Shown in pieces: positions 9,637 to 35,017 of a stretch of DNA of 64,000 bases (the first letter of the stretch is position 1; each line of letters opens with the position of its first letter). The DNA lies in NCBI RefSeq assembly GCF_053078305.1, contig NZ_CP166879.1. One strand, given 5' to 3'. The position numbers and the translations under genes are program-made. Under the pieces are notes generated by a model. That model was not told the origin of the DNA, searched no databases, and worked only from the letters and a program-made list of their open reading frames with translations.

Positions 9637-9642
9637 GCCCCC

Positions 9643-12279: not shown

Positions 12280-12345
12280 TATTCCTCCGGTTTAAAATCA
12301 CCCGGCAGTCAATTCTTTTTATTCAGGCGAAAAATTCCCCCTGCG

Positions 12346-13071: not shown

Positions 13072-13107
13072 TGTCCTGTTCCTGTTATCACATTATCTGC
13101 TGAACAA

Positions 13108-13647
13108 TTACTGATAGGTTAAAGAGAACCAGGCCTGGGCATTGGCGATGCCGCCAGTAACCCGACGCCCGGTAGCACGATATTTGGCGATGAAATGTAG
13201 CGAAGTAGAGCCTGAGTAAAGCCGTTTCCAGTTTGCTGGAGGACGATTAATCGGTACGAGGTTTCCTTCATCATCAAACAACGCTACGCCAATATTGGTG
13301 GCTATCCCTGGCCCCTCTCCCACGGAAAGCACATCCGGATTTTTACCATCCGCGACACCGTGAAACGCCACACCCACACGTTCACTCACCACCGTGCTAC
13401 ATTCCCGTAAATGAATAACAAAAGGCACCGGTGCGCTATCTTCCCCTACCGCATGAAACCGGTTACTGCTGATTTGCCCCATATTGACCGTCATTTGTTT
13501 ATCACCGGCTTCAATCCGGCAAGTTTCCGCAATAATGACGCCCTGAAATTGCATATTTCCGCCGGGCAACGTGGTATTCCATTTATTTCCGGCCAGAGCA
13601 AACATTGGCAGCAACGACGCTAATAGAAATAATCTCTTCCTTTTCAT
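13108..13647 (-). CDS. fimI: Fimbrin-like protein FimI
   Basis: Pilin-like; start set at [13 protein letters not shown] (179 aa); ORF extends further upstream and overlaps fimA 3' end. Confidence 0.88.
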
Positions 13648-13711
13648 CGTTATTTTTATCGCACAAGGGTGGGCATCCCTGCCCGTAATGACGTCCCTGA
13701 ACCTGGGTAGG

Positions 13712-14260
13712 TTATTGATACTGAACCTTGAAGGTCGCATCCGCATTAGCTGCGCCAGGGGTTGCGACACCGGTTGCATAATAACGCGCCTGGAACGGAA
13801 TGGTGTTAGTACCGTTATTCAGGGTTGTTTGCTCACTGAATGTCGCACCATCCAGCGTCAGCGCAGCACCCGTTCTGTCCAGGATCTGCACACCAACGTT
13901 TGTTGCACTACCTGCAGCAGAACTCTGCAGAGCCAGAACGTTGGTATGAGTCGCATCAATCGCCGTACCTAAAAAGGCAACAGCGGCTTTTGATGCAACA
14001 TTGGTATCGCAATCATTCAGCTGAATGTTAAAACCGACAGCAGAACTGGTTGCTCCGTCCTGTGCCAGCGATGCGGTACGAACCTGTCCTAACTGAACGG
14101 TTTGATCCACAGAGCCTGCATCAACTGCGCAAGCGGCGTTAACAACTTCCCCTTTAAAGTGAACGGTCCCACCATTAACCGTCGTGGCAGCGGCCAGAGC
14201 CGCTGTAGAACTGAGGGACAGAGCCGACAGAACAACGATTGCCAGAGTTTTAATTTTCAT
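13712..14260 (-). CDS. fimA: Type 1 fimbrial major subunit FimA
   Basis: Start set at [23 protein letters not shown] (182 aa); pilin C-terminus ...FKVQYQ. Confidence 0.95.
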
Positions 14261-14378
14261 GCTGCTTTCCTTTAAAAAAACTATTTCTAAATCGACATGG
14301 GCAGTCGTTCTGTACACTTTGTTTTGTCAACGAGTTTGACTGCCAACACTGCACAGTTTTCCCCCAAAAGATGAAACA

Positions 14379-14693
14379 TTTGGGGCCATTTTGACTCATA
14401 GAGGAAAGCATCGCGCACAAACTTTTTCAGTTTATTTGTTGGCTTAATATTCTATTGTTATCTTTATTTATAGATTTTTATATTGCATGAGGTGGTTTTT
14501 GGAGAGAAGAATGAGGAAGATGCGTCGAGCCACAGAAACGTTAGCTTTACATATAGCGGAGGTGATGTGAAATTAATTTACAAGAGAAATAATTTACATA
14601 TCAAACAGTTAGATGGTTTTTGTCGTTTTTTAAAATTTTTATGCTTGAGAAAAAATACGTAACTTATTTATGATATGGACAGTTTGGCCCCAA
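14379..14693. promoter_or_regulatory. fimS: fimS invertible phase-variation switch (315 bp) bounded by 9-bp inverted repeats TTGGGGCCA (14379-14387) and TGGCCCCAA (14685-14693); carries the fimA promoter
   Basis: Both 9-bp inverted repeats read directly between fimA and fimE; sigma70-like TTGAGA-18bp-TATGAT at 14645-14674 on + strand. Confidence 0.9.
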
Positions 14694-14740
14694 TTGTCTT
14701 GTATTTATTTGTTTTTTAACTTTATTATCAATAAGTTAAA

Positions 14741-15337
14741 TCAAACCTCTTCTCTTTTTAATTTTTCGTTTATGAGATTATTTCTTTCCCATAATCCGGC
14801 AAAACGAGCAGCATTACTGGCGGTATAACGTACAGTATGGCGAATATTTCGATGCCCGAGATAATCCTGAATTAAACGAGTATCTGCACCACGCTCCGCC
14901 AGTTCATAACCGCAAGCATGCCTTAACATATGAGGATGAGTCTGCGTTACGGTTCCAGCTTCAATACCGGCATCACGAATAATGCGATAGGCCTGCTGGC
15001 GAGAAAGCCGACTCCCGCGGCGAGAAATAAATATAGCGTCGGTCCGGTCAGCGCCTTTCCAGTTAGCACGTTCCAGGGTCCAGCGTTCCACAGCTTCACG
15101 CTCATCAAAACGTAACGGGTGAACGGTAGAAAATCCGTTCTTCAGTCGGCGAATATTTATTCGACCTTCATTAAGGTCAAGATCCTGATAATGCAGATCA
15201 AGCAGTTCACTAATACGCATCCCATGCCGATATGCCAACAGAATAAGACAATAATCTCTGGCTCCCGTTGCCCCGTAACAAACCGCCTGCATCATGGCCT
15301 GAACTTCTTTACCGGTAAGATAACGACGTTTACTCAC
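14741..15337 (-). CDS. fimE: Tyrosine recombinase FimE (ON-to-OFF switching)
   Basis: 198 aa, MSKRRYLTGKEVQAMMQAV..., C-terminal HxxR...Y recombinase motifs. Confidence 0.96.
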   Translation of the reverse strand: MSKRRYLTGKEVQAMMQAVCYGATGARDYCLILLAYRHGMRISELLDLHYQDLDLNEGRINIRRLKNGFSTVHPLRFDEREAVERWTLERANWKGADRTDAIFISRRGSRLSRQQAYRIIRDAGIEAGTVTQTHPHMLRHACGYELAERGADTRLIQDYLGHRNIRHTVRYTASNAARFAGLWERNNLINEKLKREEV

Positions 15338-15814
15338 AATAGTAGTACTCCTAACTGAGATATATTTGAATGAATACCTATAGGAAACCTCAATCGGTCA
15401 AAATTAGCCCAATAGATAAAAAGATAACCACACACGAAGTGATGTGGCTATCAGTCAATTACATTAAATATCATACAAAAATAAAATATCACTGATGTGA
15501 CAACATCTATTTTCATTGATTTGATTCAATATAACAATAGATTGCAGTGGATTAACTTCCAGTTGCTTAAAAAATAAAGAAAAAAGTGCGAAAACAGGAG
15601 AATTTAAGCGATGTGTAAATTTATGAATGATTTTGTTTATTTATTTTGAAGAACATAAACCATTGTATTTTGTATGGATATGGTTAACTTAATGTTTATT
15701 ATGATAATTAAGAATTATACTTACAATAACATCAATTAATAAATGGTTAATCGTTTTTGATATATCGTAAGAATAATGTAGTTTTTAACACCATCCCTGG
15801 TATCTCAACTATCT

Positions 15815-16417
15815 CTATAAAACAGCGTGACGCTGTCGTCCTCTGGCTCTATCCCAGATGCCGTAAAAACGCCCTGCATTGCTGGCGGTATACCAGACAG
15901 TATGACGAATATTGCGATGCCCAAGATAATCCTGGATAAGTCGCGTATCTATTCCCATATTCGCCAAAGCAAAACCACACGAATGGCGTAACATGTGCGG
16001 ATGAATCTCCAGTGACAACCCGGCATTACCACCGGAAGTCGAGATAATATGGTAAAACTGTTGCCGAGAAAGCGGATTCCCCTTACGCGATAAAAATACC
16101 CACTCGCTCTCAGCATGCGGATAAGAAGTACGGATACTCAACCAGTTTTTTAAAGCCTGAATTTCTTTGTTCAATAGCGGGTGCGTTGTTGAAAAGCCTT
16201 TTTTTAATCGATGGATATATATACACTTTGCCTTAAGATCAATATCCGAAATCCTCAATCGACAAATTTCACTCGCCCGGAAACCATGAATAAAACAAAG
16301 CAAAGTCAGACAATAATTACGTGCTGCATGAGGCCCGGTATTTGCTGCTTTAAGGAGTGATTCGATTTCACTATGGGTCAGGAAGTTCCTTTTTTTGTTA
16401 TCAGCCTTATTCTTCAT
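15815..16417 (-). CDS. fimB: Tyrosine recombinase FimB (bidirectional switching)
   Basis: Start set at MKNKADNKKRNFLTHSEIESLL (200 aa); paralog of FimE. Confidence 0.95.
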   Translation of the reverse strand: MKNKADNKKRNFLTHSEIESLLKAANTGPHAARNYCLTLLCFIHGFRASEICRLRISDIDLKAKCIYIHRLKKGFSTTHPLLNKEIQALKNWLSIRTSYPHAESEWVFLSRKGNPLSRQQFYHIISTSGGNAGLSLEIHPHMLRHSCGFALANMGIDTRLIQDYLGHRNIRHTVWYTASNAGRFYGIWDRARGRQRHAVL

Positions 16418-17872
16418 CGTTTTTCCCTTATAATTACAGACGCGCACTAGCTGTGCTGGGTTAGCAATAATCCAACATTTTTATCCTGATTATGTTTATA
16501 AAAGCGAACGTTTGCTTAATAACTAACGTAAGTGGACCAGTTCTTCTGAGTGAACTTAAATGGAGTAGCAACAGTTAATTATAATAACGTTGCCATACAA
16601 ACGCTATGCTCTTGCATGCTATGTACCTTTATATATTTATCAATCGGATACGAATCTAATAATAACCCTCATCATTAATGCAACTAATCTTATCTATATA
16701 TCATGTGATATGTTCTGTAACAAGTAAAATCAACATAAAAAATTCAGCAAAATTTAATATTCGTTCAACTAGCCGTCTCACATATGACATTATTAGTCAA
16801 CTCAATTTGCCACAAAATGGCTATTTCATGGAACACAGTAATTTCTTAGTGGCTATTATCAAGCTAATTCTTAGGTCCCTAGCGATTATTCCTGGCTGGT
16901 TCGTCAGTTTAAGCCATGAGATTGTTACATTCCTTTTTATCCTGGAGATATGGGGGAACGCAGGAGACGATTTTTTCATCTACATTCGCTGGTAAATATG
17001 GCTTTGGTCACTGCGACTTAAACCTTCCTCAATCACAGCCATTCGCCGGGCGATACGGCAAACAAACTAAGTGAAACATCATCCTGAAAACACCAACATC
17101 AACAAGCCTCTCCAGATCGACTTCAGAAGTGACCAGTTACAAGCCACAAACCAGGAAACATATTTCATGATGAGAGTTATGCTCAGCCTGATGGCGGGTA
17201 AACACTTATTTTCACCAAGCTCACTGAGTTAGCTTGCAAAGCTTCCCTTGTTTAGACTCTAAATAAATTATTTATAAAACATATAGTTAAAAGAAGATCT
17301 TTAGTTTTTGAAGACCACCGCAAGTGTTCGTCTGGCTTCACATGGCATCTTCTTCTTAGAAAAAGATCGACATATTTTGTGACACGAATTGCAAATCTGG
17401 TTTTGTTGTATGGATTGCGTGATTTTTGATCTGGTATAACAGGTATAAAGGTGCACCACGATAGACAATGAGACAGGGCATCTTGCAATCTATGGCAAAC
17501 ATCGCTTCAGTTCTTTCTCATCGGGTGATGAAAACGCACTTCAGTCTGAAAGGAATATGAAAATGAGATCAACAGACACTCTATTTTATGACTCTGGGTA
17601 AAATGGATTGAGTAAGTGATATAGCTTACGAACATTCAAATCAATTAAACATCAGAAGAGATTTTATACTCAGGTATTTAATCTGGATCTCTGTTTATTT
17701 AAATAATGTGAAAAGAGATTTTTCACAGGAGACCTTATACAAAAAAATATAAAATACAGCTACCGGTTGCCAAAGACACTATAAGCCTGGCAAAAAATAT
17801 TACACAACATAAATGCTAATTGTTTATGCGGGCTTTGTATTGCTTTCTGTATCCTACAAATGAGTGAAATTT

Positions 17873-18589
17873 ATGAAAAAGGCTAAAATACTTTCTGGCG
17901 TATTATTACTGTGCTTTTCGTCCCCATTAATTTCTCAGGCTGCGACACTGGACGTACGTGGTGGATATCGTAGTGGAAGCCACGCCTATGAGACTCGACT
18001 CAAAGTCAGTGAGGGATGGCAAAATGGATGGTGGGCAAGTATGGAAAGTAATACCTGGAATACCATTCATGATAATAAAAAGGAAAATGCCGCACTCAAT
18101 GATGTTCAGGTTGAAGTTAATTACGCGATTAAACTTGATGATCAATGGACGGTGCGCCCGGGAATGTTAACGCATTTTAGCAGCAACGGCACACGCTACG
18201 GACCCTACGTAAAACTGTCCTGGGACGCGACAAAAGATCTTAATTTTGGCATTCGCTATCGTTACGACTGGAAAGCTTACCGACAACAAGACTTATCCGG
18301 TGATATGTCTCGTGATAACGTTCATCGTTGGGATGGATATGTCACTTACCATATTAATAGTGATTTCACCTTCGCATGGCAAACGACGCTATACAGCAAA
18401 CAGAACGATTATCGCTATGCAAACCATAAGAAATGGGCGACGGAAAATGCATTTGTTCTACAATACCATATGACGCCGGATATTACGCCATACATAGAAT
18501 ATGACTACCTTGACCGTCAGGGTGTTTACAACGGCAGAGATAATTTATCGGAAAACAGTTATCGCATTGGTGTGTCATTTAAACTGTAG
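17873..18589 (+). CDS. nanC: N-acetylneuraminic acid outer-membrane channel NanC (KdgM family)
   Basis: Signal peptide plus beta-barrel-like sequence; start at MKKAKILSGV (238 aa). Confidence 0.9.
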   Translation: MKKAKILSGVLLLCFSSPLISQAATLDVRGGYRSGSHAYETRLKVSEGWQNGWWASMESNTWNTIHDNKKENAALNDVQVEVNYAIKLDDQWTVRPGMLTHFSSNGTRYGPYVKLSWDATKDLNFGIRYRYDWKAYRQQDLSGDMSRDNVHRWDGYVTYHINSDFTFAWQTTLYSKQNDYRYANHKKWATENAFVLQYHMTPDITPYIEYDYLDRQGVYNGRDNLSENSYRIGVSFKL

Positions 18590-18609
18590 TAGACAGGAGA
18601 CAGTCACAA

Positions 18610-19715
18610 TGAATAAAACAATAACGGCGCTTGCTATCATGATGGCTTCATTTGCCACAAACGCGTCTGTATTACCGGAAACTCCTGTGCCATTTAAAAG
18701 TGGTACCGGAGCAATTGATAACGACACTGTCTACATTGGTTTAGGTAGCGCAGGTACGGCATGGTACAAGCTGGATACACAGGCCAAAGATAAAAAATGG
18801 ACAGCGTTAGCTGCATTCCCTGGTGGACCAAGAGATCAAGCAACCTCGGCATTTATTGATGGCAATCTGTATGTGTTTGGCGGCATTGGAAAAAATAGCG
18901 AGGGCTTGACTCAGGTATTTAATGACGTACACAAATACAACCCTAAAACCAATAGCTGGGTTAAATTGATGTCGCACGCACCGATGGGCATGGCGGGCCA
19001 TGTGACTTTTGTACACAACGGCAAGGCTTATGTTACTGGCGGTGTTAACCAGAATATCTTCAATGGCTATTTTGAAGATCTCAACGAAGCTGGAAAAGAT
19101 TCAACCGCTGTAGATAAAATCAATGCCTACTATTTTGACAAAAAAGCAGAAGATTATTTCTTCAATAAGTTTCTGTTGTCTTTTGATCCCTCAACACAGC
19201 AATGGAGTTACGCTGGCGAATCGCCCTGGTACGGAACGGCTGGTGCGGCGGTTGTGAATAAAGGTGATAAAACCTGGCTTATTAATGGCGAAGCCAAACC
19301 AGGATTGCGAACGGATGCCGTATTTGAACTTGATTTCACCGGTAATAATTTAAAATGGAATAAGCTTGCTCCCGTCTCATCACCAGATGGCGTCGCTGGC
19401 GGTTTTGCGGGGATAAGCAATGATTCTCTTATATTTGCCGGAGGGGCCGGATTCAAAGGTTCACGAGAAAATTACCAGAACGGTAAGAACTATGCGCATG
19501 AAGGCCTGAAAAAATCATATAGCACTGATATTCATCTTTGGCATAACGGGAAATGGGATAAATCGGGTGAATTATCGCAAGGTCGGGCCTACGGAGTATC
19601 ATTGCCCTGGAATAATAGTCTATTAATTATTGGCGGTGAAACTGCAGGCGGCAAAGCGGTGACGGATTCAGTTTTGATCTCTGTGAAGGATAATAAAGTT
19701 ACAGTACAAAACTAA
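18610..19715 (+). CDS. nanM: N-acetylneuraminate mutarotase NanM (Kelch-repeat)
   Basis: Start at MNKTITALAIMMASFATNA with signal peptide; repeated GG..G Kelch-like motifs. Confidence 0.9.
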
Positions 19716-19779
19716 CGCTTCAGGGCCCCAGTAAAGGGGCCCAGCTATCAATTTGTCATTTCAATTACGCGAAAATTAT

Positions 19780-20760
19780 ATGAACGCAATAATATCGCCC
19801 GATTATTACTATGTTCTTACCGTTGCTGGTCAGTCTAATGCTATGGCGTATGGCGAAGGACTGCCATTACCGGACAGGGAAGATGCGCCTCATCCCAGAA
19901 TTAAACAATTAGCGAGATTTGCGCATACGCATCCCGGAGGCCCGTCATGTCACTTTAACGACATTATTCCACTGACTCACTGCCCACACGATGTTCAGGA
20001 TATGCAGGGTTATCACCATCCTCTGGCAACGAATCATCAAACACAGTACGGCACCGTTGGCCAGGCACTGCATATTGCACGGAAATTACTGCCCTTCATT
20101 CCTGATAATGCAGGGGTTCTCATCGTTCCATGTTGTCGTGGCGGCTCGGCTTTTATCGCAGGCAGCGAAGGGACATATTCAGAACGGCACGGAGCCAGCC
20201 ATGATGCTTGTCGTTGGGGAACGGATACTCCGCTATACCAGGATTTAGTCAGCAGAACGCGAGCCGCACTGGCAAAAAATCCGCAGAACAAATTCCTCGG
20301 CGTATGCTGGATGCAAGGCGAATTTGACTTAATGACCAGTGACTACGCGTCACACCCTCAACACTTTAATCATATGGTTGAAGCCTTTCGTAGGGATCTA
20401 AAACAATACCATTCTCAGCTTAATAATATTACTGATGCGCCCTGGTTTTGCGGCGATACCACCTGGTACTGGAAAGAAAATTTCCCTCATGCGTATGAAG
20501 TTATTTATGGCAATTATCAAAATAATGTTTTAGCCAATATTATTTTCGTCGACTTCCAGCAACAAGGTGAAAGAGGACTGACGAACGCGCCTGATGAAGA
20601 CCCGGACGATTTAAGCACGGGATATTACGGTTCAGCGTACCGGTCACCGGAGAACTGGACGACGGCACTGCGAAGCAGTCATTTCAGCACGGCAGCCCGT
20701 CGGGGGATTATTTCTGACAGGTTTGTAGAAGCAATTTTGCAGTTTTGGCGCGAAAGGTGA
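19780..20760 (+). CDS. nanS: 9-O-acetyl-N-acetylneuraminate esterase NanS
   Basis: Start at MNAIISPDYYYVLTVAGQSNAMAYG (SGNH-like GQSN motif), 326 aa. Confidence 0.88.
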   Translation: MNAIISPDYYYVLTVAGQSNAMAYGEGLPLPDREDAPHPRIKQLARFAHTHPGGPSCHFNDIIPLTHCPHDVQDMQGYHHPLATNHQTQYGTVGQALHIARKLLPFIPDNAGVLIVPCCRGGSAFIAGSEGTYSERHGASHDACRWGTDTPLYQDLVSRTRAALAKNPQNKFLGVCWMQGEFDLMTSDYASHPQHFNHMVEAFRRDLKQYHSQLNNITDAPWFCGDTTWYWKENFPHAYEVIYGNYQNNVLANIIFVDFQQQGERGLTNAPDEDPDDLSTGYYGSAYRSPENWTTALRSSHFSTAARRGIISDRFVEAILQFWRER

Positions 20761-20767: not shown

Positions 20768-21418
20768 TTAATTTGATTTATTCGCATCCATCAACGCTTT
20801 TAACTCCTCCGGCGTAAACGGTGGTTTGCGTCGGTGCAACATCGCATGGCAATTAGGGCACACAGGAAGTAAATCATTAACTGGATCCAGCAGGTAATCC
20901 TCTTTAATGGCTGAAAGCGGCACCAGGTGATGCATATGGATAAAGCCCTCAGCGATATCGCCATAGATCTTCACCAGATCAACGCCGCATACGTTGCACT
21001 GGCATCCGTGATATTCGACTGCTTTCTCGCGAGCTTTTTTATCGCGTTCATAGCTGTTTACCGTCACCTTTATCGCCGCACCTTCAACGTAGGTCCCCTG
21101 CGACGGCAACTCATCCGGGAACAGAACATCGGCTATGGGAGCCGCAGCGGCTTTATCCTGATGAATATGAAATCCCTGATCTATAAGTAGCTTGACGCAT
21201 TTAGATTTTATTCCGCCGGTGAAATCCGCAGGGGTAAATTGCGTCCCCGTCATCAATGTCGCTGCGATGCCAGCAATCGCCTTCGAGGGGTAACGTCGGC
21301 CATGATATTCAATCTCATACAACCGTGCAGGCTGGAACTGATGAGTTTCTCCCGCATCCCATAAATGAATAGCTTTGATGATATACCGCCGAGGAAGATG
21401 ATCGGGGAGTTTATTCAT
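20768..21418 (-). CDS. HNH endonuclease-domain protein (C-terminal CxxC...HH...CPNCH zinc/HNH motif) with uncharacterized N-terminal domain; possible modification-dependent restriction enzyme
   Basis: C-terminus CQCNVCGVD...HMHHLVPL...CPNCHAMLH read directly; no family assignment verified. Confidence 0.6.
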   Translation of the reverse strand: MNKLPDHLPRRYIIKAIHLWDAGETHQFQPARLYEIEYHGRRYPSKAIAGIAATLMTGTQFTPADFTGGIKSKCVKLLIDQGFHIHQDKAAAAPIADVLFPDELPSQGTYVEGAAIKVTVNSYERDKKAREKAVEYHGCQCNVCGVDLVKIYGDIAEGFIHMHHLVPLSAIKEDYLLDPVNDLLPVCPNCHAMLHRRKPPFTPEELKALMDANKSN

Positions 21419-21497
21419 GGAGAATGTCCTTATACGTTCTCAGAACAAGCAGCAAAAAAACAAATGAGATCAAAGTAATATATCTTCACTTGCAGGC

Positions 21498-22427
21498 TTG
21501 AACAGCAGAAAATTTGCGAGCATGATCGCAATTATTTCACTGCCAGGGATATCAATGGCTTCCAGTAAATCGCTACAGCAGGCAATTGCCAATATAAAAA
21601 TCTGGCATAAGGGTGAACAGCGCGCGCCGCATAAGCCATTGTTATTGCTATACGTATTAGCGGGATACCTGCATGGACATCCGCGCCTTTTCGATTATGG
21701 CTCGGAAATCTACGAACCTCTGCACAGTTTACTGGAACGTTTTGGGCCACAGCGTTCACAGTACCGACCTGATATGCCGTTCTGGCGATTACAAGGCGAC
21801 GGATTCTGGCAATTACACAATGCCGAGCGTTGCTCAACAGCAGGGAGCAGCCGACAACCGCCAGTGAAGGAACTGAACGAATACCACGTTGCAGGCGGTT
21901 TCGATGAACAGCACTACGCCCTGGTAACCGGCAATAAAAAACTCATCAATACTCTGGCGCAACAGATACTCGAAGCGCACTTCACCGAGAGTATTCAGGA
22001 AGAAATTGCTGACGAGCTGGGTTTTGATCTCCAGCAAATCCGTAAACAGCGCGACCCGTTATTTCGCAAAAATGTATTACGCGCTTATAAATACCAGTGC
22101 GCGATATGTGGCTTTAATATGCGCCACGACGACACCACCGTCGCGCTGGAAGCGGCGCATATAAAATGGAAACAGCACGGCGGTCCTTGTGAAATTCCTA
22201 ATGGCCTGGCGCTTTGCGCAATTCACCATAAAGCCTTTGATAAAGGATCGATTGGCCTGGACGAAAATATGCGGGTACTGGTATCAGATGCGGTAAACGG
22301 CGGAGGGATCGTTGAGAGATTATTCTGGGATTTTGACGGGAAAACTATTGCGTTGCCGCAGGTGCGTAAAAATTACCCTTATGAGGGGTTTGTGGAGTGG
22401 CATCGGAAAGAGGTTTTTAGGGGGTGA
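21498..22427 (+). CDS. HNH endonuclease-domain protein with ~180-aa N-terminal putative DNA-recognition domain (predicted restriction endonuclease type)
   Basis: C-terminal CAICGF...HIKWKQHGG...NGLALCAIHHKAFD HNH-like motif; divergent from preceding HNH gene. Confidence 0.6.
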   Translation: MNSRKFASMIAIISLPGISMASSKSLQQAIANIKIWHKGEQRAPHKPLLLLYVLAGYLHGHPRLFDYGSEIYEPLHSLLERFGPQRSQYRPDMPFWRLQGDGFWQLHNAERCSTAGSSRQPPVKELNEYHVAGGFDEQHYALVTGNKKLINTLAQQILEAHFTESIQEEIADELGFDLQQIRKQRDPLFRKNVLRAYKYQCAICGFNMRHDDTTVALEAAHIKWKQHGGPCEIPNGLALCAIHHKAFDKGSIGLDENMRVLVSDAVNGGGIVERLFWDFDGKTIALPQVRKNYPYEGFVEWHRKEVFRG

Positions 22428-22468
22428 GGTTGATAACTATCGCAGTATGTTCAATATTGCTGACATAA

Positions 22469-22651
22469 TCAGTGCAGGATCTTGCCGCTAGTTTACAACT
22501 CGCCTTCGATAGCGGCGCAAAACGAGTTCTGTTGCCGATATCCTCGGCTATGGATATTCCAACAGTTCCGGCAGAGTTGTTTACCAAGTTTCAGGTAAGT
22601 TTTTACTCAGAACCGGTTGATGCGGTTTATAAGGCGCTGGATGTGAATTAA
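22469..22651 (+). pseudogene. Start-less 3' gene fragment encoding a Lon-protease-like C-terminus (...GAKRVLLPISSAMDIPTVPAELF...VDAVYKALDVN*)
   Basis: 60-codon open frame without start, GC-rich island in AT-rich surroundings, resemblance to Lon C-terminal region (GIKxVLIP...) from memory. Confidence 0.35.
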
Positions 22652-23049
22652 CACATTCCTCAGCTTATTTATAAAAGGATTATTCCCATTTGATATAATA
22701 TCAGTGCCAATTTACTTTTTTCAATGGAATATATCTCGGCTAAATAACAATAAAACTTATCGCTAATGGATTAAATAAACAATTTTCTAATTCATTTCAC
22801 CACCTTTGATATAGAAATTGATGGTGTTGTCGCTGCCATTGCTTATGGTGATGATAAAATCCACGTTTCTGGATCGTTGCGTAGAAAATCATCACTACCT
22901 TGATATTTTGATGCGATATGATCATACCGTTCCGTAGTACCAATTTCAATTTCAGGCTAAACCCCAACATTAAAAAAATTAGAGTTATTCACTGATTATA
23001 TTATCAATAATATAATCAGTGAATAACATGGACTATATAATAAATTGCT

Positions 23050-25320
23050 CTAATCATTTCCCTTACGAATATATGGGCCAAAAGCCCAAGAATCATAATA
23101 AGGGTGATGGACTAGTTTTTCATTAAATCGAACACTATAAGTTAATTTTTTTATATTTTTACGTACAGCATTAATACTGGGCAAAGAGGAAAGATAATCT
23201 ATAAACTTATCGATAGTGATTTCCCCTTCGCAACACTCAAACCCATCAATGATATTTTTCGCCATTTTTCCATTTTCATTTGTTTGATATATCACTCCAG
23301 GTATTCGTTGAAAAAAACTAGATAATGCATATTTGTCCGCTACATATGTATCATCCACATGATATTTCCCACCGAGCATAGTTGTAGTAACAATAAGCTT
23401 ATACACACCTTTGGGTTGCCATGTTGATGGTAGTTCGAATTCTTTAATGATCACATCAAGATGATTAAGATAATGTTCAGAAATTCGATTTATTTGTTGA
23501 AAATAAGAACGCATAAATTTATTATTATGATCATGTATTAATGAGCTATCTCCAACGATGTTACACACTTGCTGATAGTACTTACCATAATATATTGGTT
23601 GACCATTTGATTTTAGTTCTGTAAAAATCAAACAATCATCCAGGAGAATCACGCAATCGCACTGATAATTAGCATGAGCATCAATTGGAGAAGCTTTAAT
23701 CCCCGCATCACGAACTTGTTTTATAAATTGTTGCTCATGAAATCGCCCTTTACTTGCTTGAGAAATTTTTTTGGAACCAAATAATGACATTAGAGAGCGA
23801 GTCACTGAGCTATTTGCTATTAATGCAGGCATTAAGCATAAACCGTCCATACAGGGAATAAATGGGCAATCATTAAGATCATGTGATTTTGAATTGAAGG
23901 TAAAATAATCTATCAGTTTTTTTGCTGCATCTGCTGCAATCCCCTTACGTTGAAAGAATGATAACCAACTCTCACGGCTTTTTATGATCAGCCAGCGATC
24001 CAACTGTAGGGGTATAGGTTTTGTCGATGAAAATCTTTTGCTCATTTCTTCTTTAGATAACTCGACTAAACATTGATAAGCGTGCACCCAATTAAATAAT
24101 GATATATTCCCATATTCTTCATGAAGGTCATCAGGAGATATATTTTCCAACTCGCTTAGATGAAATGAGCTAAAAACGCCATCAGAATTTAAGTAAGATG
24201 GCATATGATCCTTTACCCAACTATTTAGATGAAAATGTTTGTTACTAAATTCATGAACTTCGCTATATAGATGTGACGCTCTCATCATTAGTCTATTTCT
24301 TGCAATCTCATAATCTCGGTATAAACAAAAACTATCAACCTCAAGAGAGTAAATGTTATTATCCAATTTTGTAAATACTGCACTACTTAGTCTGAAAAAG
24401 TCTCTTACTCTGCTTAATGAGTCAAAAACATTCCACTCATTAAGGTACCCTCCCATTGAAAGCAAGGTTTGTTTATTCACACAAGAAGTTAGTTTCAATG
24501 GCTCATGAGTCCGTAAATAAGAAAATATTCGTCCGGTGTAATTGGCTACCTCATCAAATGCCCTATCGATAACTCGAAAATATTCGATATCAGGTTCAGC
24601 ATGAATATTAATATTTTCAGAAACGATTACTCTGCTTAATGAGTCAAAAACATTCCACTCATTAAGGTACCCTCCCATTGAAAGCAAGGTTTGTTTATTC
24701 ACACAAGAAGTTAGTTTCAATGGCTCATGAGTCCGTAAATAAGAAAATATTCGTCCGGTGTAATTGGCTACCTCATCAAATGCCCTATCGATAACTCGAA
24801 AATATTCGATATCAGGTTCAGCATGAATATTAATATTTTCAGAAACGATAAATAATGGAAAAATCCTCTTCATTTTTTTAGGATCATTGACCACAACCAA
24901 GGATGATAATGATGATAAAAACATCTCACAAAACATGATGAGATTAAGTATTAATGCATGTGATTTTTTTGTATTTTTACGCCAAATACCAGCACATTTT
25001 GTAGCCGCAAAGAAAGAATTATTTATATCATGCATAATTTTACATTGACTCTCGAACTCAGAAATTAGTTCAATGTTATCAGGAAATGAGTTTACTAGCT
25101 CATTAATACATTTTTTGAATGTATTGTTATACTCAACTTCAGTCTGAACTGAAAATCTATTATAATAGATGGAAGATATTCTCAGCACATCCAAGGCGAT
25201 ATCTATACTAATATCATCTCTTTTTATGTACTCACAAAAAAAAGAACAAAACTGTTTCGGGTCGTTAGCAAGATTACTAATTCTAGTGGTATCATAAACT
25301 TTTTCCATTTTTCCATACAT
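23050..25320 (-). CDS. Hypothetical 756-aa AT-rich orphan protein; C-terminal region has a PD-(D/E)xK-like motif (CDCVILLDD...FTELK)
   Basis: Long uninterrupted ORF, low GC, no recognisable family; nuclease motif is inference only. Confidence 0.6.
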   Translation of the reverse strand: MYGKMEKVYDTTRISNLANDPKQFCSFFCEYIKRDDISIDIALDVLRISSIYYNRFSVQTEVEYNNTFKKCINELVNSFPDNIELISEFESQCKIMHDINNSFFAATKCAGIWRKNTKKSHALILNLIMFCEMFLSSLSSLVVVNDPKKMKRIFPLFIVSENINIHAEPDIEYFRVIDRAFDEVANYTGRIFSYLRTHEPLKLTSCVNKQTLLSMGGYLNEWNVFDSLSRVIVSENINIHAEPDIEYFRVIDRAFDEVANYTGRIFSYLRTHEPLKLTSCVNKQTLLSMGGYLNEWNVFDSLSRVRDFFRLSSAVFTKLDNNIYSLEVDSFCLYRDYEIARNRLMMRASHLYSEVHEFSNKHFHLNSWVKDHMPSYLNSDGVFSSFHLSELENISPDDLHEEYGNISLFNWVHAYQCLVELSKEEMSKRFSSTKPIPLQLDRWLIIKSRESWLSFFQRKGIAADAAKKLIDYFTFNSKSHDLNDCPFIPCMDGLCLMPALIANSSVTRSLMSLFGSKKISQASKGRFHEQQFIKQVRDAGIKASPIDAHANYQCDCVILLDDCLIFTELKSNGQPIYYGKYYQQVCNIVGDSSLIHDHNNKFMRSYFQQINRISEHYLNHLDVIIKEFELPSTWQPKGVYKLIVTTTMLGGKYHVDDTYVADKYALSSFFQRIPGVIYQTNENGKMAKNIIDGFECCEGEITIDKFIDYLSSLPSINAVRKNIKKLTYSVRFNEKLVHHPYYDSWAFGPYIRKGND
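24406..24849. repeat. Perfect tandem duplication of a 222-bp unit (2 copies) inside the 756-aa ORF, in frame (74-aa duplication)
   Basis: Identical DNA blocks beginning tactctgcttaatgagtcaaaaacattcc at 24406 and 24628; protein repeat VIVSENINIHAEPDIEYFRV... x2. Confidence 0.9.
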
Positions 25321-25996
25321 CCTATTGTCTAAATTACTATAAAACTAGCCACTTAACTAATAATTATAAATTTCATCTTTTACACCTTGCATTTTTATAA
25401 CCAATGAAATCTACAACAAGCAACTGATGGATAATCCGATATTGGTCGCATTTAATGGCATGGTAGCAAAGTTTTCATCACATACCTCCTTTGCACCAGA
25501 ATAAACGCCAGAGATCTGAAATTGCGAGTACACTACAGAAATTGTACTGCTGGTCCCATCAGCATAAAACCATAGTTACACAGGTAATCATCATTATTCG
25601 CCAAGATAATAAATATTATTCGGTAGAATAGCGTTCTCAGGTGGTCAGTAAAATTGTCTTCAACAAGATGTCTGCGCATCTCGTCTGCTAGCCCTACATA
25701 ACTGCTCTCGACCGAAACTATTTATTGAATGTTCACCAAGGTGGGCGTGGAGACAAAATGACGTCTTTTGATATTAGCTACCTGAGCCACATGGTCAAAA
25801 CGTTCAAGTAGCATAGCGAAACCACCCTGCCCACGTAATGTGGACGATGCAGCTTCCAGCCAGAGCAAACTTGGGACCATCGACTACAAAATGAAGAATA
25901 CTGAACTGCTTTTCTGGCAGGCCTATATACTGCACGGATATGGGTGATTTCAGACACAAAAAAAGCCGCCCTTGAGCGACTCGATTTGCATACGGT

Positions 25997-26020
25997 GTGG
26001 TGCGAAGGCCGGACTCGAAC
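25997..26020. repeat. Direct repeat of leuX 3' end (attachment-site repeat) marking the distal boundary of the P4-like element
   Basis: tggtgcgaaggccggactcgaac matches leuX 3' end tggtgccgaaggccggactcgaac (38719-38742) at 23/24. Confidence 0.8.
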
Positions 26021-26285
26021 ATTTAATTAAACAACTGTATTTAAATAGTTTTTGTATTTAAAAATGAATTGATGCCCCTTTTTGTGCCCCCATTACCAAA
26101 ATAACAACCTAACCTTGTACTAAAAAAGAGATTTTTCAATGTAGGCACTCTGGTTCGGCTACGCTTACCGGAGACGAACCTGAACATAAGAAATCTGAGA
26201 TAACTTCATAGTAATCATCTTTAACACTTTTGACCAATAATATCTATCATAAAGGCAGAGAAATTAATCTCTGCCTTTATTAAGG

Positions 26286-27154
26286 TCACATAAAAAGATT
26301 ATTAATTAGAGTACACTGTTGACATCCATTAATATCTACAGCTTTTAAAAAATCTGTGTTACTAATCAAAACAGCATTACTAACACCTGAAAACTGCAGC
26401 TGTGCATACATACCTAAGATAGATTTTTTTTCGTAATACTGAGATCTTCCTGTATAACTTTCACCAGTATTAGAACTTATAAATCGCCTCGTTCTTTCTT
26501 GTATCAATAAATTATTTTTAAGGAAGCTCAAAATATCTTGCTGCAATTGTTTGTTTTTGTTATGAAAATAACATAACAATTGATCCTCTAAGGTACCAAG
26601 CTGAGTGTTAACGTCATGAAAAATATACCCCCCCATTCACTCCCATTAAACTCAATAATACTTCCATTGGAGAGTTGAGTAGTATCTTCTAAACCTATCT
26701 CATTTTTAATCTCTGTTATTCTGGCATCAATGCCAAGTTCATCAGCATCAAAAAAATATAAAAATCTATATGCAATTTCTATACTGAAGTCATCTGTACC
26801 AGAAAGTTCTTTATACATAGTGACTAACTCAGCCCTTTCACGACTTCTGCCATCACCATTTAGATTATGTATAAAAATTAAGTTCCCGTTATGATAGAAA
26901 CAAACAGAAGGTAGTTTTGGCCCGTTTGGCTGAAAGCCAAGTTTTTTATCTGGAATTCTTACTTGACTTAGTTCTTTTTCAAAGCGTTTATCAAACGGTG
27001 GAGGTAATTGACCAATTTTAAGATCTTGAAGTTGGAATCCATTAACTAAAAGAATTCTGCTAAGAAAAGCGACGTCATGCTGTCCTTCACAAAAGGCAAC
27101 TATGACTCTATTATAAGATACACTCACAATTTTAGCCTCTAATATCAAGATCAA
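26286..27154 (-). CDS. Toprim-like (OLD/DUF4435-like) putative nuclease partner, split into two overlapping frames (188 aa + 116 aa) by a frameshift at a G7 homopolymer (26628-26634)
   Basis: Candidate Toprim acidic residues (CEGQHD ... FFDADE); the two frames join if the run were G8; start ambiguous (TTG at 27154 or GTG at 27127 preceded by GAGG). Confidence 0.5.
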
Positions 27155-29369
27155 TATTTTTTATCAAATAGCCAAATCTTTCGCCATCAGCCCTTTTCAC
27201 TACTACTTTATCGTCAACTTTGCTTAACTGAAATCCAGTAATGCAATCATTATTATAATCATTATTTAAAAAAGCTCTGATACATTCACCCGAATGTGAC
27301 GTAAGGAACACTTGCACATTGAAACGTTCTGCAAGTTGTTGCGTAAATTTAGTAAACTCCAATAGTAAACTATAATGAATCGCAGTTTCAAATTCATCAA
27401 TAAAAAGTACACCGTTACGACATGCAGCAAAAGATAAAGCTATATAAAAGATGCGCTGAATACCCTCTCCATAAGAAGTAAGATCGAAACTTCTGTTAAA
27501 ATCATATGCTGATTCTACGATAAACCTTTTGAGCTCCATGTCTTCAGTAAATCTGACATCTTTTATCGTTGGCTCAATTTTATTCATGAATTCAATAACA
27601 AGGCCGATAGCGGATTGTATATTTAAATCATCTGATTCTGAGTCAGTTACAGACGTTAAATTTGCACCTATACTTTTGTTATAATCAGTGAGCAAATCGT
27701 CTATATCGTAGAAATAAGGGCTTTTAAATGACGATGAACACAAATGCGAAACTTGATCAGCGTTCCTTCTCATACGTTCATGGATAAAAGTATGGACTGT
27801 GTTATTTCTAAATTCTCCATCAATGCTAGACTTTAAGCTATAAGATGCTATATAGTCATCTTGTTTATCAATTGAAGAATCATCATATTTAATCATTTCA
27901 ACAGTAACATTACTATCATCAAATACTCCTGACAAGATTATTTTATCTTGGAAAAGAGCATTTAGCAATGTTGGACTCAAAGTACTGATTTTATTTTTTT
28001 GCCTAATAAGATTAAAATGCGATGAAATATCATTACGCTGCGTCAATAAGTAAATTGCTTCAAGCAATGAAGTTTTTCCAGCATTATTAAAGCCAGCAAT
28101 GATATTAATCTTATTGAAATTATCCAATGAGAAGTTTTTAAAGAATTTATATTTTTTGATATAAATGGATTTAAAATGTTTTTTTACTCCATACTCAAAA
28201 TTAGTTGTATAGTTTCCTCCTTCGATATTTATAGCCATCTGCTTTGGCATTATTTGTGTTAGTTTTTCTTTTGCATCATCTAATAAGCGCAAATCCTCTT
28301 GGTTTATGAGGCTACTATATAGATTTAAATCCTTTAAGGCGTCTTCAAGCTTGCTTAAAGCATTTTTATAGTTTTGCTGATTTACTGAACCGCTCGCAGC
28401 TAATCCTCTTGCAAGGCTACGTTCATCCTCCATTACCTTCAAGGCTTTTTCATTATTGATGAACAAAGCAAGATCTCGTATCTCAAGAGATTTAGTAATT
28501 ATAGGTTCTAGCTCAACGTATTCACCATTACTTTCCTCTTCAATATCATCTTCTAGCTCATTTTTCTCAAGGTATTCATCTGTTTTAGAGATCCACGAAA
28601 AAAGCCTATCAAGATTCACTAAATTTCTAGCATAATAACCGTTATCACTCCAGTCTAACCAAGATTTAATTACAGGCTTTTTGATTATTTCTTCAAAAAT
28701 ACCAAACATACTTGGTTCGAATTGCTCACCATACTCACTTGTTTTATATAAGGAAATTAGATTATAAACTCTAAGCATAGAGCGAAGACGCGTTTTAGAA
28801 ATACCGAGCGAACTAACTAGCTCATCTTCTTTTTCAACATACTCATCTCGAGTTTTGTCTTCATATGGTTTTAAAAAATCATAAAGCAGTTTGGACTGAT
28901 TATATGTTGACCACTTTTTATTACCACTTATATGCTTTAATCCCATTACAATCAGATGTTTTTCAACATCTTGATTATTATGGATTTCGAAAGGAACACT
29001 TCTAAAAATAGATGGATCTAGTTTTCCAATATCAAACCCCTTTTCATATGCTTCTTGCAATGCTTTCAGCGCCGTTACACGACGATTTCCCTCAAGGACT
29101 AAATAATTGTTATCTCCTAAATCCTTTACTTGAATAACATCAACATCTAAGTATCCATTAGATTTAAAACTTGCTATTAGATCTTTGATATTCTCTTGTC
29201 TATTTCCTTCTATAAAAAAGCGAGTCCTACGCTGAATTGTTGGATCTAGCATGTCCTTTTCTGAGACTGGCTTGTGCTGGTCATTGTCAACAAAACGGTA
29301 GTTATTAGGATCTAGAAATAAATTTTTTAAATTTTTGCTAATGCGCGGGCGAATTTGCTCGACATTCAT
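27132..29369 (-). CDS. ParB/Srx-like N-terminal domain fused to ABC-type (AAA_15/21, OLD/AriA-like) ATPase; putative anti-phage defence ATPase
   Basis: N-terminal LVLEGNRRVTALKAL (ParB GxRR-like); C-terminal Walker A GFNNAGKTS, signature-like SYGEG, Walker B VLFIDEFE, H-loop TSHS; GAGGTGA RBS before ATG. Confidence 0.65.
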   Translation of the reverse strand: MNVEQIRPRISKNLKNLFLDPNNYRFVDNDQHKPVSEKDMLDPTIQRRTRFFIEGNRQENIKDLIASFKSNGYLDVDVIQVKDLGDNNYLVLEGNRRVTALKALQEAYEKGFDIGKLDPSIFRSVPFEIHNNQDVEKHLIVMGLKHISGNKKWSTYNQSKLLYDFLKPYEDKTRDEYVEKEDELVSSLGISKTRLRSMLRVYNLISLYKTSEYGEQFEPSMFGIFEEIIKKPVIKSWLDWSDNGYYARNLVNLDRLFSWISKTDEYLEKNELEDDIEEESNGEYVELEPIITKSLEIRDLALFINNEKALKVMEDERSLARGLAASGSVNQQNYKNALSKLEDALKDLNLYSSLINQEDLRLLDDAKEKLTQIMPKQMAINIEGGNYTTNFEYGVKKHFKSIYIKKYKFFKNFSLDNFNKINIIAGFNNAGKTSLLEAIYLLTQRNDISSHFNLIRQKNKISTLSPTLLNALFQDKIILSGVFDDSNVTVEMIKYDDSSIDKQDDYIASYSLKSSIDGEFRNNTVHTFIHERMRRNADQVSHLCSSSFKSPYFYDIDDLLTDYNKSIGANLTSVTDSESDDLNIQSAIGLVIEFMNKIEPTIKDVRFTEDMELKRFIVESAYDFNRSFDLTSYGEGIQRIFYIALSFAACRNGVLFIDEFETAIHYSLLLEFTKFTQQLAERFNVQVFLTSHSGECIRAFLNNDYNNDCITGFQLSKVDDKVVVKRADGERFGYLIKNIDLDIRG

Positions 29370-29634
29370 ATGTCACCTCAATGGTGTAGGAACTATACAA
29401 TGCAACTTTACTTGATACCTCAGCAATCAACAACTTCATGTTTTTGAAACTAAGCGCGCGCAGCCCCGCACGCCTGCCCGCTTCGCTTAACAGACTGGTT
29501 TTCATGCACCTCATAAATCGTCTCAGAAGCCACCAAACAAGGGTTTTCTCGTCAAAAATGGTGCATAAGACTCATGCGTTTTCATGCGCCATAGACATGC
29601 ACTCATTCGCTCTCATGCCAGCCAGGAAAAGGGG

Positions 29635-29662
29635 ATAAAAAATCCCGGTACTGGACCGGGAT
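29635..29662 (-). terminator. Rho-independent terminator after the delta/Ogr gene
   Basis: Stem atcccggt-loop-accgggat followed by T-run on the minus strand. Confidence 0.55.
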
Positions 29663-29682
29663 TACGTGGGCGTTCTTTCTAA

Positions 29683-29964
29683 TCAGACAGGAATCTGCTG
29701 ACGGCTTGACAGTTTTGACGCGGAGCCATAGCGATTAAGTGTTTGCTGTTGTTTTTCCGGGGATTGTGCTTTGTCTGATAGCTGTTCATTGCGTCGGGGT
29801 TTCATGATTATCTTATCCACACTCTCCAGTGCCGTAAATGTGCAGGAACATTCCAGATTCTGGCACTGATACCACGAGCGTTTAACTGACGGAGCTTCAT
29901 AGGCTGCTGTTCTGGCGTGTGCAACTGTACCGCATTCCGGACATTTAAGTGCCATTAATATCAC
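29683..29964 (-). CDS. Ogr/Delta-family zinc-finger late-gene activator
   Basis: MALKCPECGTVAHARTAAYEA...WYQCQNLECSCTF matches the Ogr C4 zinc-finger pattern. Confidence 0.8.
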   Translation of the reverse strand: MILMALKCPECGTVAHARTAAYEAPSVKRSWYQCQNLECSCTFTALESVDKIIMKPRRNEQLSDKAQSPEKQQQTLNRYGSASKLSSRQQIPV

Positions 29965-30512
29965 TCCTGTATATCGTTAATGTCATTCAGGCGTTGCTGA
30001 AAACGCAGATGTTGTGCCGGGGTGTAAGAGCCCTGGCAATCACGAATCATCCCGGGGTCAGGCATCAAACCGGATTCATCCAGGATCTCACGATAATCCC
30101 CGGCAATTTCAGGCGGTGTTATTGTCAGCTGGCGAACCAGAGCACTGCGTAATATACGGGACGCAACGTCAACCCCTCCGCGCCCCTTCAGGAACGGAGC
30201 CAGTGCAGATGTCAGGGCTGCCCCATTCGCCTGCATAAAATTGCTGAGAGCGGCTTCTGTGCAGGCTTCCATCAGTAAATGCTGCGAGTAAATGCATTCG
30301 CGCGCAGCACAGTTAATTTGCCATTTCAGCACATCCAGACGTTCCCGCAGTAATTCGAGCTGTCGGGCATAATCTGCTGGTTTTTCTGTGGCAGCGAGGA
30401 GAGATGCTATCTGTTGTTCAACGGCTTTTCGGCTCTCACTATGTCCGGCCCACAGAATACGGGCATTCCGAAAACTGGTAAGTGCCTGGTCAGGCGTGCC
30501 TCGGGCCGTCAT
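29961..30512 (-). CDS. P4-like late-operon protein (tentatively Psu-like)
   Basis: 183-aa helical protein in late operon between Sid-like and delta genes; assignment by size and position only. Confidence 0.4.
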   Translation of the reverse strand: MTARGTPDQALTSFRNARILWAGHSESRKAVEQQIASLLAATEKPADYARQLELLRERLDVLKWQINCAARECIYSQHLLMEACTEAALSNFMQANGAALTSALAPFLKGRGGVDVASRILRSALVRQLTITPPEIAGDYREILDESGLMPDPGMIRDCQGSYTPAQHLRFQQRLNDINDIQE

Positions 30513-31252
30513 ACTGCTTTCTCCTTCTCAGCAAGTTCCTGACGAACCTTAATTTTATGCATAGCTGCCGGAGAGAGTTGATTACTGAAATCCAGACGCG
30601 CCGCATAATCCGGGGCAATTCCCGCCAGTTTAAACACCGGGTCCTGTTCAGGCATCGCATCGTTAGCCAGAGCCGGTCTGGTGATATGTTTATGAATAAA
30701 GTCTTTCAGCACTGTGTCCGGGTCATTAACTGAATTCACCACACCCACAACGGCACTGGCTTCCCGGCCCATTGTGGATTTAAGCAGGCTCAGCGTCTGA
30801 ATAAGCGCTTTTCCATGCGATTGCATAAAATCTTCCCAGATTTGTTTTGCGCGAATATCCACAAGAATGTTATGCGCGTGGATATACTTTCCGGCTAATT
30901 CCGCAGCTTTCTGCGGCAAAAGTGCATTTTCGCTTTCCTGAGCCGCCAGCAGCTCATCAAAATCCTCAAGCGTTTCTCGTCCCAGCGCAATTTCCGTGCG
31001 CAGTTTTTTCATTTCCTTTGAAACCACGCCCTGACTTTCACGAAACAGCGTGCGCCACTCCTCATTCAGTGTGTTCGTCGTGGCTTCCATCTCAGCGCGA
31101 CGCTGGCGGATTGTCGCAATATTATCCGCTGCCGCTTTCTGCTGACGACGTGCTTCAAGCCATGCGTTTCTGGCTGTGTTCATGGTTTCCAGTGCCCGCT
31201 GCGTTACAGCCGGAAAAGTGGAAAGGTTGTTATTCACTGCGGTGTTGTTCAT
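30509..31252 (-). CDS. P4-like late-operon protein (tentatively Sid-like capsid size-determination scaffold)
   Basis: 247-aa helical/coiled-coil-like protein, first gene of late operon; assignment by size and position only. Confidence 0.4.
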   Translation of the reverse strand: MNNTAVNNNLSTFPAVTQRALETMNTARNAWLEARRQQKAAADNIATIRQRRAEMEATTNTLNEEWRTLFRESQGVVSKEMKKLRTEIALGRETLEDFDELLAAQESENALLPQKAAELAGKYIHAHNILVDIRAKQIWEDFMQSHGKALIQTLSLLKSTMGREASAVVGVVNSVNDPDTVLKDFIHKHITRPALANDAMPEQDPVFKLAGIAPDYAARLDFSNQLSPAAMHKIKVRQELAEKEKAV

Positions 31253-31430
31253 GGCTTCTCCTGTCGGGTTGGTTCGTTACGTCAATTGTGTCGTGGCTGA
31301 CACAAGCACACTATCGGTGCTCAGTGTGTGGTGGCTGGCACAACGGGCGCTTGCGGTTATTCAGACGTGGCTATGAAAGCCAGCCAGATAAAAATGCCCT
31401 CAGTTTCAGTCTGCTTTATGTCCCTGATGC

Positions 31431-31618
31431 GGTGGAACAGGTGAAACATGTGTTACAGCTTTGTTTTATAAAGCACTTATATACACTGCACCGGTGGAAC
31501 ATCGCGGGTAACAAGGTGGAACAGCGGATTGGCTGGCGTTACATCTGTTCCACCTCACTATTTCAGAAGGTGGAACAGGTTCAGCCCTGTAAAATACGGT
31601 TGTTCCACCTGTTTCACC
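31431..31618. repeat. Iteron array (GGTGGAACA / TGTTCCACC, at least 7 copies in both orientations); probable P4-type ori/crr alpha-binding sites
   Basis: Repeats read directly downstream of the alpha gene; resemble the P4 TGTTCACC iteron. Confidence 0.6.
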
Positions 31619-31652
31619 TGTTACCCTTAATAAATAAGACTCACGCAAAGCC

Positions 31653-34705: not shown

Positions 34706-34986
34706 CTGGCACCTCCTTCAATCAGTGCGCAGCTGTGTGCAATATCCGTCAAATCTGCCCGCAGGTACTCCATCAGCGCGGCGACACCAGGCGCACAGCC
34801 TGCGTCCAGTGCTCCGGCCTGAGACGGGTATTCAGAAAAGAGAAGCTGGAGCATGTCGCAGGCATTTCTTGCGCGGATCAGCTTTCCGAAACCGTCCTCT
34901 GACAACCCATAGGCAAAAGCACCGGTATTGTGTTTTTCAGGCAAAGTGTGGCCCTGAGCACCGTTGTGCCCGTTTGAAATATTCAT
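34702..34986 (-). CDS. Hypothetical P4-like early protein
   Basis: 94-aa ORF overlapping the next gene by 4 nt. Confidence 0.45.
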   Translation of the reverse strand: MNISNGHNGAQGHTLPEKHNTGAFAYGLSEDGFGKLIRARNACDMLQLLFSEYPSQAGALDAGCAPGVAALMEYLRADLTDIAHSCALIEGGAR

Positions 34987-35017
34987 CGTGAATTACTCCG
35001 TTTTCAGCGGTATTTTG

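Follow-up and report, generated by a model that had tools for sequence, protein, structure and literature searches.

A brxL pseudogene remnant as the probable scar of a BREX deletion at the leuX hotspot of Escherichia coli

The question raised by this locus is what a short open frame without a start codon represents, lying just beyond a restriction gene in a variable region of the Escherichia coli chromosome. An earlier note on the same DNA had read the frame as the C-terminal end of a Lon-type protease gene, and had proposed that it could be the scar of a displaced defence operon of the BREX type. The window, that is, the whole stretch of 64,000 nucleotides that was analysed, is E. coli chromosome running from fim through nanC-nanM-nanS (17864-20760) and a variable region to the tRNA gene leuX, and then to ahr/idn. 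The leuX gene is the anchor of E. coli defence hotspot #37 (Hochhauser et al. 2023, PMC10121019; EcoSal review PMC12707154). BREX has been reported at hotspots #1 and #37 only, and Zorya, Wadjet and AbiE are also enriched at hotspot #37 (PMC10121019; PMC12707154). The locus belongs to this hotspot, both by its location between the nan genes and leuX and by what its relatives carry at the same place (BREX, type II Zorya, Wadjet, AbiE and PT-related restriction/RM), a repertoire that agrees with the published one. We consider it very probable that the frame is part of a non-functional pseudogene scar, namely the 3' end of brxL left by a BREX deletion at the leuX hotspot and then subject to decay. 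The features on which this reading is based are listed below.

21555-22427, plus strand: intact gene of a phosphorothioated-DNA-binding SBD-HNH restriction endonuclease (NF045808, E 5e-132, 439 bits versus a cut-off of 180)
22437-22438, plus strand: deletion junction, from base-by-base comparison with both parents in elppa10 (L002; left 3349/3350, right 17909/17910)
22438-22471, plus strand: upstream brxL piece, BrxL codons 606-616 of the elppa10 allele
22472-22651, plus strand: main brxL 3' remnant, BrxL codons 636-694 and the stop codon
22472-22479, plus strand: surviving copy of an 8-nt direct repeat, GT(A/G)CAGGA, from alignment to intact alleles
22652-22758, plus strand: relic of the intergenic spacer between brxL and a phospholipase-D-like (PLD-like) gene, about 85% identical to positions 18181-18298 of 2013C-4081 (L003)
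22759-22934, plus strand: decayed 5' stub of the PLD-like gene, about 59 codons, from pairwise alignment with L003 18299 onward
22984-23027, minus strand: perfect hairpin with a 20-bp stem and a T run, terminator of a convergent orphan gene (self-complementarity in L001)
23050-25320, minus strand: orphan gene, right half of the scar haplotype
38718-38802: tRNA-Leu(CAA) gene leuX, right end of the variable region

The frame itself is as the earlier note described it. It follows a TAA at 22466-22468, is open from 22469 to 22648, has no start codon and closes with a stop codon at 22649-22651, its translation ending in ...GAKRVLLPISSAMDIPTVPAELFTKFQVSFYSEPVDAVYKALDVN before the stop. Its position right after the HNH gene was also correctly given, since it lies 10-40 bp beyond the stop codon of that gene (22425-22427). 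Calling the frame GC-rich is justified only by comparison with the AT-rich DNA that lies downstream of it (46% versus 28-34%). The count of about 60 codons is right for the part past the premature stop, but the brxL-derived DNA begins 34 bp earlier, at 22438.

In order to identify the fragment, the 60-codon frame was compared with protein families and solved structures. The BrxL model TIGR02653 of NCBIfam matched it with an E value of 1.2e-24 over profile positions 617-675 of 675, and the BrxL model of PADLOC with 8e-20 over positions 622-680 of 680. Among structures, residues 621-678 of BrxL 8EMH matched with 9e-21, and the chains 8EMH, 8EMC and 8EIL with about 1e-21, the solved chain having 679 residues and 8EIL being the C-terminal domain. 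The fragment thus corresponds to the last 59 residues of BrxL, as known from type I BREX of E. coli HS and of Acinetobacter (8EMH/8EMC/8EIL; E 1e-21 to 1e-24). It is 95% identical to functional BrxL at the protein level. However, it scores only 86.7 bits against the curated TIGR02653 cut-off of 628 bits and so falls short of a full-length BrxL, which has about 680 amino acids in an N-terminal domain, an AAA+ ATPase and a C-terminal domain, whereas 71 codons of brxL-derived DNA are left here. Compared with BrxL, the remnant keeps material from codons 606-694 only, with a nonsense codon and an internal deletion of 19 codons; of the three domains just named, the first two are lost, as are two thirds of the C-terminal one, and the partner BREX genes are missing. 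Judged by its sequence, the feature is a remnant of a BrxL family member and not a functional member. Nor does the window hold a type I BREX system (brxA, brxB, brxC, pglX, pglZ, brxL) around it, as the PT-DNA restriction gene is followed directly by the brxL stub.

The proposed likeness to a Lon-type C-terminus therefore stands in so far as BrxL is meant (E 1e-20 to 1e-24 across BrxL models and solved structures) and fails for true Lon proteases, of which the best match had a non-significant E value of 0.52; no Lon family was among the NCBIfam matches at E up to 1. In BrxL the C-terminal domain comprises about residues 498-679; it is roughly 14% identical to Lon or RadA, carries no protease catalytic motif, and is the part through which BrxL rings dimerise tail to tail (PMC10164562). 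The wording "Lon-type protease" is thus acceptable for ancestry and annotation and not for activity. In Lon (MEROPS S16), the C-terminal domain has a fold family in common with that of BrxL (PMC10164562), which explains the GxKxVLxP-like motif picked up by the earlier note. The fragment does not qualify as a Lon (S16) member, and the region of the catalytic Ser lies outside it. RefSeq/PGAP labels copies of the remnant as a partial pseudogene with missing N-terminus, named "hypothetical protein" or "peptidase".

The proposal of a former BREX operon can be examined directly in related strains, and it was borne out there. Both elppa10 (L002) and 2013C-4081 (L003) have intact brxL within a complete type I BREX system between the PT-DNA restriction gene and leuX. 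The gene order on the left is nanC-nanM-nanS, an HNH remnant, the PT-DNA restriction endonuclease gene and a membrane protein gene; it continues with brxA-brxB-brxC-pglX-pglZ-brxL and a hypothetical or PLD-like gene, on to leuX and ahr. The DNA of the window is 97.5% identical to L002 up to 22436, just past the stop of the restriction gene, and matches it again, at 93.9%, in the final 181 bp of brxL. The intact BREX-1 operon at the syntenic site directly supports the proposal of a displaced-BREX scar, and also its corollary that the operon was cut by deletion or insertion. The restriction gene adjoins the scar on its left and anchors the synteny with BREX-bearing strains on that side; RefSeq annotates the identical gene in L001, L002 and L003.

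This restriction gene, a phosphorothioate-DNA-dependent type IV endonuclease, was found in about 1870 of 5426 E. coli genomes. Just downstream of its stop codon there are at least six different breakpoints (homology ends at query positions 47, 100, 131, 137/138 and 144), which indicates that recombination at the hotspot has repeatedly had its boundary in the few bases after the gene. The window also has an intact second HNH endonuclease gene, which stands alone (216 aa; 20768-21418, minus strand). In many relatives (536, elppa10 and 2013C-4081 among them) the same gene is a 105-bp stub, owing to a 571-bp deletion; the DNA at 20874-21444 of the window is absent from L002, a small additional scar in the same hotspot.

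At the junction, homology to the left flank ends with ...GGTTGATAA (22436), and brxL homology starts at 22438 (TATCGC...). The base between them, C at 22437, matches neither parent, and the junction reads ...GGTTGATAAC|TATCGCAGTATG...; microhomology there amounts to 2 nt at most. In L002 coordinates the deleted DNA runs from about 3350 to 17909 (about 14.56 kb), and its loss removes the membrane-protein gene, brxA, brxB, brxC, pglX, pglZ and brxL codons 1-605. The brxL-derived DNA at 22438-22651 comes from codons 606-694 of the 694-codon elppa10 allele.

Two further lesions are found within the stub. The first is a nonsense mutation, AAA to TAA, at the position of codon 615 (22466-22468). The second is an in-frame 57-bp deletion of BrxL codons 617-635 (19 codons). 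The intact alleles L002, L003 and L008 have two copies of the 8-nt repeat 57 bp apart (..CCAGTACAGGA.. and ..CCGGTACAGGA..) and the window has one, so that the deletion looks like a classic slipped-strand or microhomology event. The piece upstream of it, 22438-22471, matches L002 17910-17943 at 28 of 34 positions; this match is in frame and colinear, and in brxL it lies 57 bp upstream of the remainder. Exact k-mer searches found no source for this piece, and it was considered as foreign filler DNA; this was dropped after gapped local alignment against the deleted interval identified it as diverged brxL sequence (score of 19 versus a maximum of 16 in 60 shuffles). Among the 5426 E. coli genomes it occurs inside the scar only, once per genome, in all 360 genomes with the scar.

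The main part of the remnant (22472-22651) is 93.9% identical in DNA to brxL of elppa10. The differing codons of this 180-bp part comprise 8 synonymous and 3 non-synonymous changes (8/11 synonymous), which points to a somewhat divergent functional allele as its origin. Diagnostic substitutions of the remnant, in the BrxL numbering of elppa10, are I658, E681 and D691. We looked for such an allele in the second E. coli brxL allele group (L008, 88% identical to L002), and rejected it because the upstream region of L008 is no closer than that of L002; a full-length extant allele identical to the parent of the remnant was not found. The upstream 34 bp diverge more from intact brxL (about 80% identity) than the downstream 180 bp (94%). 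Mutations clustered locally in connection with the deletion event could be the reason, or else a parent allele that was itself a mosaic.

The relic continues beyond the stop codon. The spacer part (22652-22758) has a 19-bp deletion relative to 2013C-4081, in which the PLD-like gene adjoins brxL downstream. The stub of this gene has lost its start codon (ATG to ATA) and has three frameshifting indels. Homology to 2013C-4081 stops at about 22934, the BLAST span being 22472-22934 versus L003 18001-18484. Thus the remnant resembles E. coli brxL alleles at the same chromosomal site not only in its own DNA (94%) but also in having the spacer and neighbour gene found in 2013C-4081. From the hairpin at 22984-23027 onward, the DNA has no relation to the BREX island.

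The orphan gene that follows encodes 678 or 682 aa in other strains and 756 aa here. A 3.05-kb query with this gene and its flanks (22900-25950) found matches in 360 of the 5426 genomes, and in 331 these covered at least 80% of the query. As many genomes have the scar, which implies that relic and orphan gene belong to a single haplotype block. We asked whether the orphan gene is a defence gene that displaced BREX, and found little by which to identify it: its product has no match in Pfam or NCBIfam, PADLOC gave only a weak one (PDC-M29B, E 0.0015), and its homologues are "hypothetical". The length of 756 aa is due to a perfect tandem duplication of 222 bp (two in-frame copies; 74 aa) at 24405-24849, which is missing from nearly all of the 360 other genomes, a few of which have other length variants. 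Distant homologues occur in Salmonella, Izhakiella (named "NERD domain" in UniRef), Xenorhabdus, Pectobacterium and Pantoea. One motif of the protein (...DDCLIFTELK...) resembles PD-(D/E)xK. The protein may be an uncharacterised defence nuclease.

In order to see how widely the scar is distributed, positions 22300-22800 were searched by megablast against 5426 complete E. coli genomes. The same arrangement was found in 339 of them, and in some others the search matched full-length brxL genes. In all, the scar is present in 360 of the 5426 genomes (about 7%), with UTI89, NU14, 536, F11, APEC O18, IMT5155, UM146 and O145 STEC among its carriers. The left context of the block varies, being either nanS with a full or truncated HNH gene or type II Zorya with a nanM fragment. 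The sequence itself is found once per genome and always in the same context, so it is not the conserved intergenic element that the earlier note had named as an outcome speaking against its proposal. In seven scar copies that were compared, the premature stop and the 57-bp deletion were present in 7/7. Three sites in the remnant were polymorphic; two were non-synonymous, one of them a Gly to Asp change in the conserved DSGAKR motif, and this share of two in three would fit relaxed constraint. The flanking non-coding relic had 4 variable sites in the 107-bp intergenic part and 6 in the 176-bp PLD stub. The density of sites is similar in the remnant and in the non-coding relic; the numbers are small, but they agree with neutral drift.

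Signals of expression were also sought. No Shine-Dalgarno-like sequence was read upstream of the GTG at 22472, and a scan for promoter consensus gave one weak match only (9 of 12) on the plus strand, upstream of the remnant at 22430-22458. No Rfam match at E up to 1 overlapped the remnant. A non-coding RNA or regulatory element elsewhere in the relic was likewise rejected, since at the same threshold there was only a meaningless miRNA-like match on the terminator hairpin. The 14.56-kb deletion relative to L002, the TAA, the 57-bp deletion, the missing Shine-Dalgarno-like sequence and the partial/pseudo label of PGAP together class the feature as a pseudogene and deletion scar. We conclude that the remnant probably has no function of its own. 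Against this it may be said that the 60-codon frame is still open and that its differences from intact alleles are mostly synonymous, a pattern which descent from a divergent functional allele would produce just as well.

We infer the order of events and the mechanism of the deletion as follows. The ancestor would have had the membrane-protein gene, brxA, brxB, brxC, pglX, pglZ, brxL and the PLD-like gene in the hypervariable leuX hotspot, between the phosphorothioate-DNA restriction gene and leuX. An illegitimate deletion of about 14.56 kb would then have fused DNA 10 bp past the stop of the restriction gene to brxL codon 606, and would have abolished all BREX functions. The BREX system of E. 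coli HS has the non-palindromic 6-bp m6A motif GGTAAG (PMC12707154); methylation of this type would be expected to be lacking in scar strains, as they have no pglX. Decay of the stub would have come next, through the nonsense codon, the 57-bp slipped-strand deletion between the 8-nt direct repeats, and amino-acid changes. In a second rearrangement the PLD-like gene would have been cut after about 59 codons and joined to the orphan gene beside leuX. The relic of about 500 bp (22438-22934) would since have persisted as neutral DNA, inherited or recombined as one haplotype block.

Loss of BREX at this site is not confined to the scar. A search with the whole 14.8-kb BREX locus found the full locus in 292 genomes, together with 5'-only fragments (the membrane protein gene, brxA/B, or as far as a pglX with IS1203 inside it), pieces from within the locus (brxA, pglX and pglZ), and 3' pieces. 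Stubs of 331, 181 and 90 bp had raised the possibility that the 3' end of brxL is preferentially retained. This was rejected, as 5'-only, internal and 3' fragments occur alike and without asymmetry, and BREX decay at the leuX site would by this survey be common and unbiased. Two of the stubs are independent of the scar studied here. In L004 (NZ_CM128599.1) a 331-bp brxL 3' stub at 7001-7331 abuts an IS911 fragment in a different island. In L006 (NZ_CP172145.1) a 90-bp stub at 7001-7090 abuts IS1; the IS1-adjacent deletion, which sets in at a fimC-proximal fimbrial gene, has taken part of the fim operon together with nanCMS and all other BREX DNA, and has left the PLD-like gene and AbiE intact. 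These are likewise independent BREX losses that left a 3' brxL fragment, but they have an IS at the breakpoint, in contrast to the clean non-homologous junction and additional decay of the scar in the window.

The hotspot of the window also holds a P4-like satellite of about 12.7 kb in leuX (26021-38717). It is bordered by an 18-bp direct repeat, 26003-26020 being identical to 38724-38741, so that a copy of the tRNA 3' end stands at its distal border. Its genes include an integrase (37291-38574), an Icd-like gene (35370-36104) and a helicase/primase-like gene of 890 aa (31653-34325). Its cargo is the candidate defence pair PDC-M38, with an AbiL/AriA-like ATPase (27132-29369), whose partner PDC-M38B is frameshifted into two open reading frames (26588-27154 and 26286-26636).

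We weighed other accounts of the fragment and of the deletion. One of them takes the fragment to resemble a Lon/S16 protease, housekeeping or otherwise, or to be BrxL-like by mere coincidence, so that BREX was never present; it could be suggested by the PGAP labels "peptidase" or "S16 family serine protease" on some copies. This is so improbable as to be negligible, and we regard it as already refuted by the sequence comparisons: BrxL families gave the only significant matches, and the remnant is brxL-like at the syntenic site with downstream DNA that runs on into the brxL-PLD spacer. A different account accepts the BREX ancestry and attributes the deletion to a mobile element, either as an IS-mediated adjacent deletion or as integrase-mediated excision or replacement of a cassette. 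IS-bounded truncations of BREX do occur at the hotspot (IS1 at the 90-bp stub, an IS911 fragment at the 331-bp stub, IS1203 inside pglX), and tRNA-targeting integrases serve it (PMC12707154). However, neither an IS end nor a transposase fragment was found at 22437/22438, and neither an att-like repeat nor a target duplication; unique DNA is joined there to unique DNA with one base unassigned, and later loss of an IS would need a perfectly clean second deletion. We therefore consider a mobile element unlikely as the agent, and an illegitimate deletion remains our preferred account.

The remaining alternatives concern function. The 59-aa open reading frame from the GTG at 22472 may have been retained as a functional mini-protein, for example as a piece of the C-terminal dimerisation domain that could interfere with incoming BREX or other Lon-fold proteins. 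In favour of this, the frame has stayed open and is well conserved (98-100%) across 360 genomes, yet this conservation equals that of the flanking non-coding relic (4 sites/107 bp; 6 sites/176 bp), and non-synonymous polymorphisms fall in the most conserved motif. Moreover, the frame has no ribosome-binding site, a weak GTG start and a stop codon upstream, it covers about one third of a C-terminal domain of roughly 180 residues (PMC10164562), and the 19-codon deletion takes out the preceding strand. A functional mini-protein is given a very small probability, and this only because over-expression of a much larger, artificial brxL 3' remnant in Salmonella (about 700-800 nt, with the whole Lon_C-like domain) had global effects (PMC9009780). 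There is also a slim chance that the relic is not purely inert, either because the stub serves as a right-hand homology arm for BREX cassettes or because the 59-aa frame interferes with dimerisation of BrxL rings. With the conserved PT-DNA restriction gene on the left, scar lineages would in the former case re-acquire BREX or exchange cassettes by homologous recombination. If true, this would help to explain how one haplotype occurs with different left contexts across E. coli as distant as B2 uropathogens, APEC and O145 STEC. None of this alters our preference for a non-functional scar.

The scar is an ordinary pseudogene in a published hotspot, of a kind already known and already annotated as a partial pseudogene. 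Publications on hotspot #37 catalogue intact systems, and the literature that was searched has no description of this brxL/PLD relic or of its junctions. Its significance beyond annotation is little: the RefSeq "hypothetical protein" or "peptidase" pseudogene can be relabelled as a brxL remnant, and it should not be counted as BREX by defence-system finders. It is also a convenient lineage marker. For the biology of E. coli, the locus offers a base-resolved example of how a large defence system would be lost from the leuX hotspot by non-homologous deletion, with slow decay of the stub, and it shows that well-studied pathogens such as UTI89, NU14 and 536 either had an ancestor with BREX or took up the scar block through recombination.
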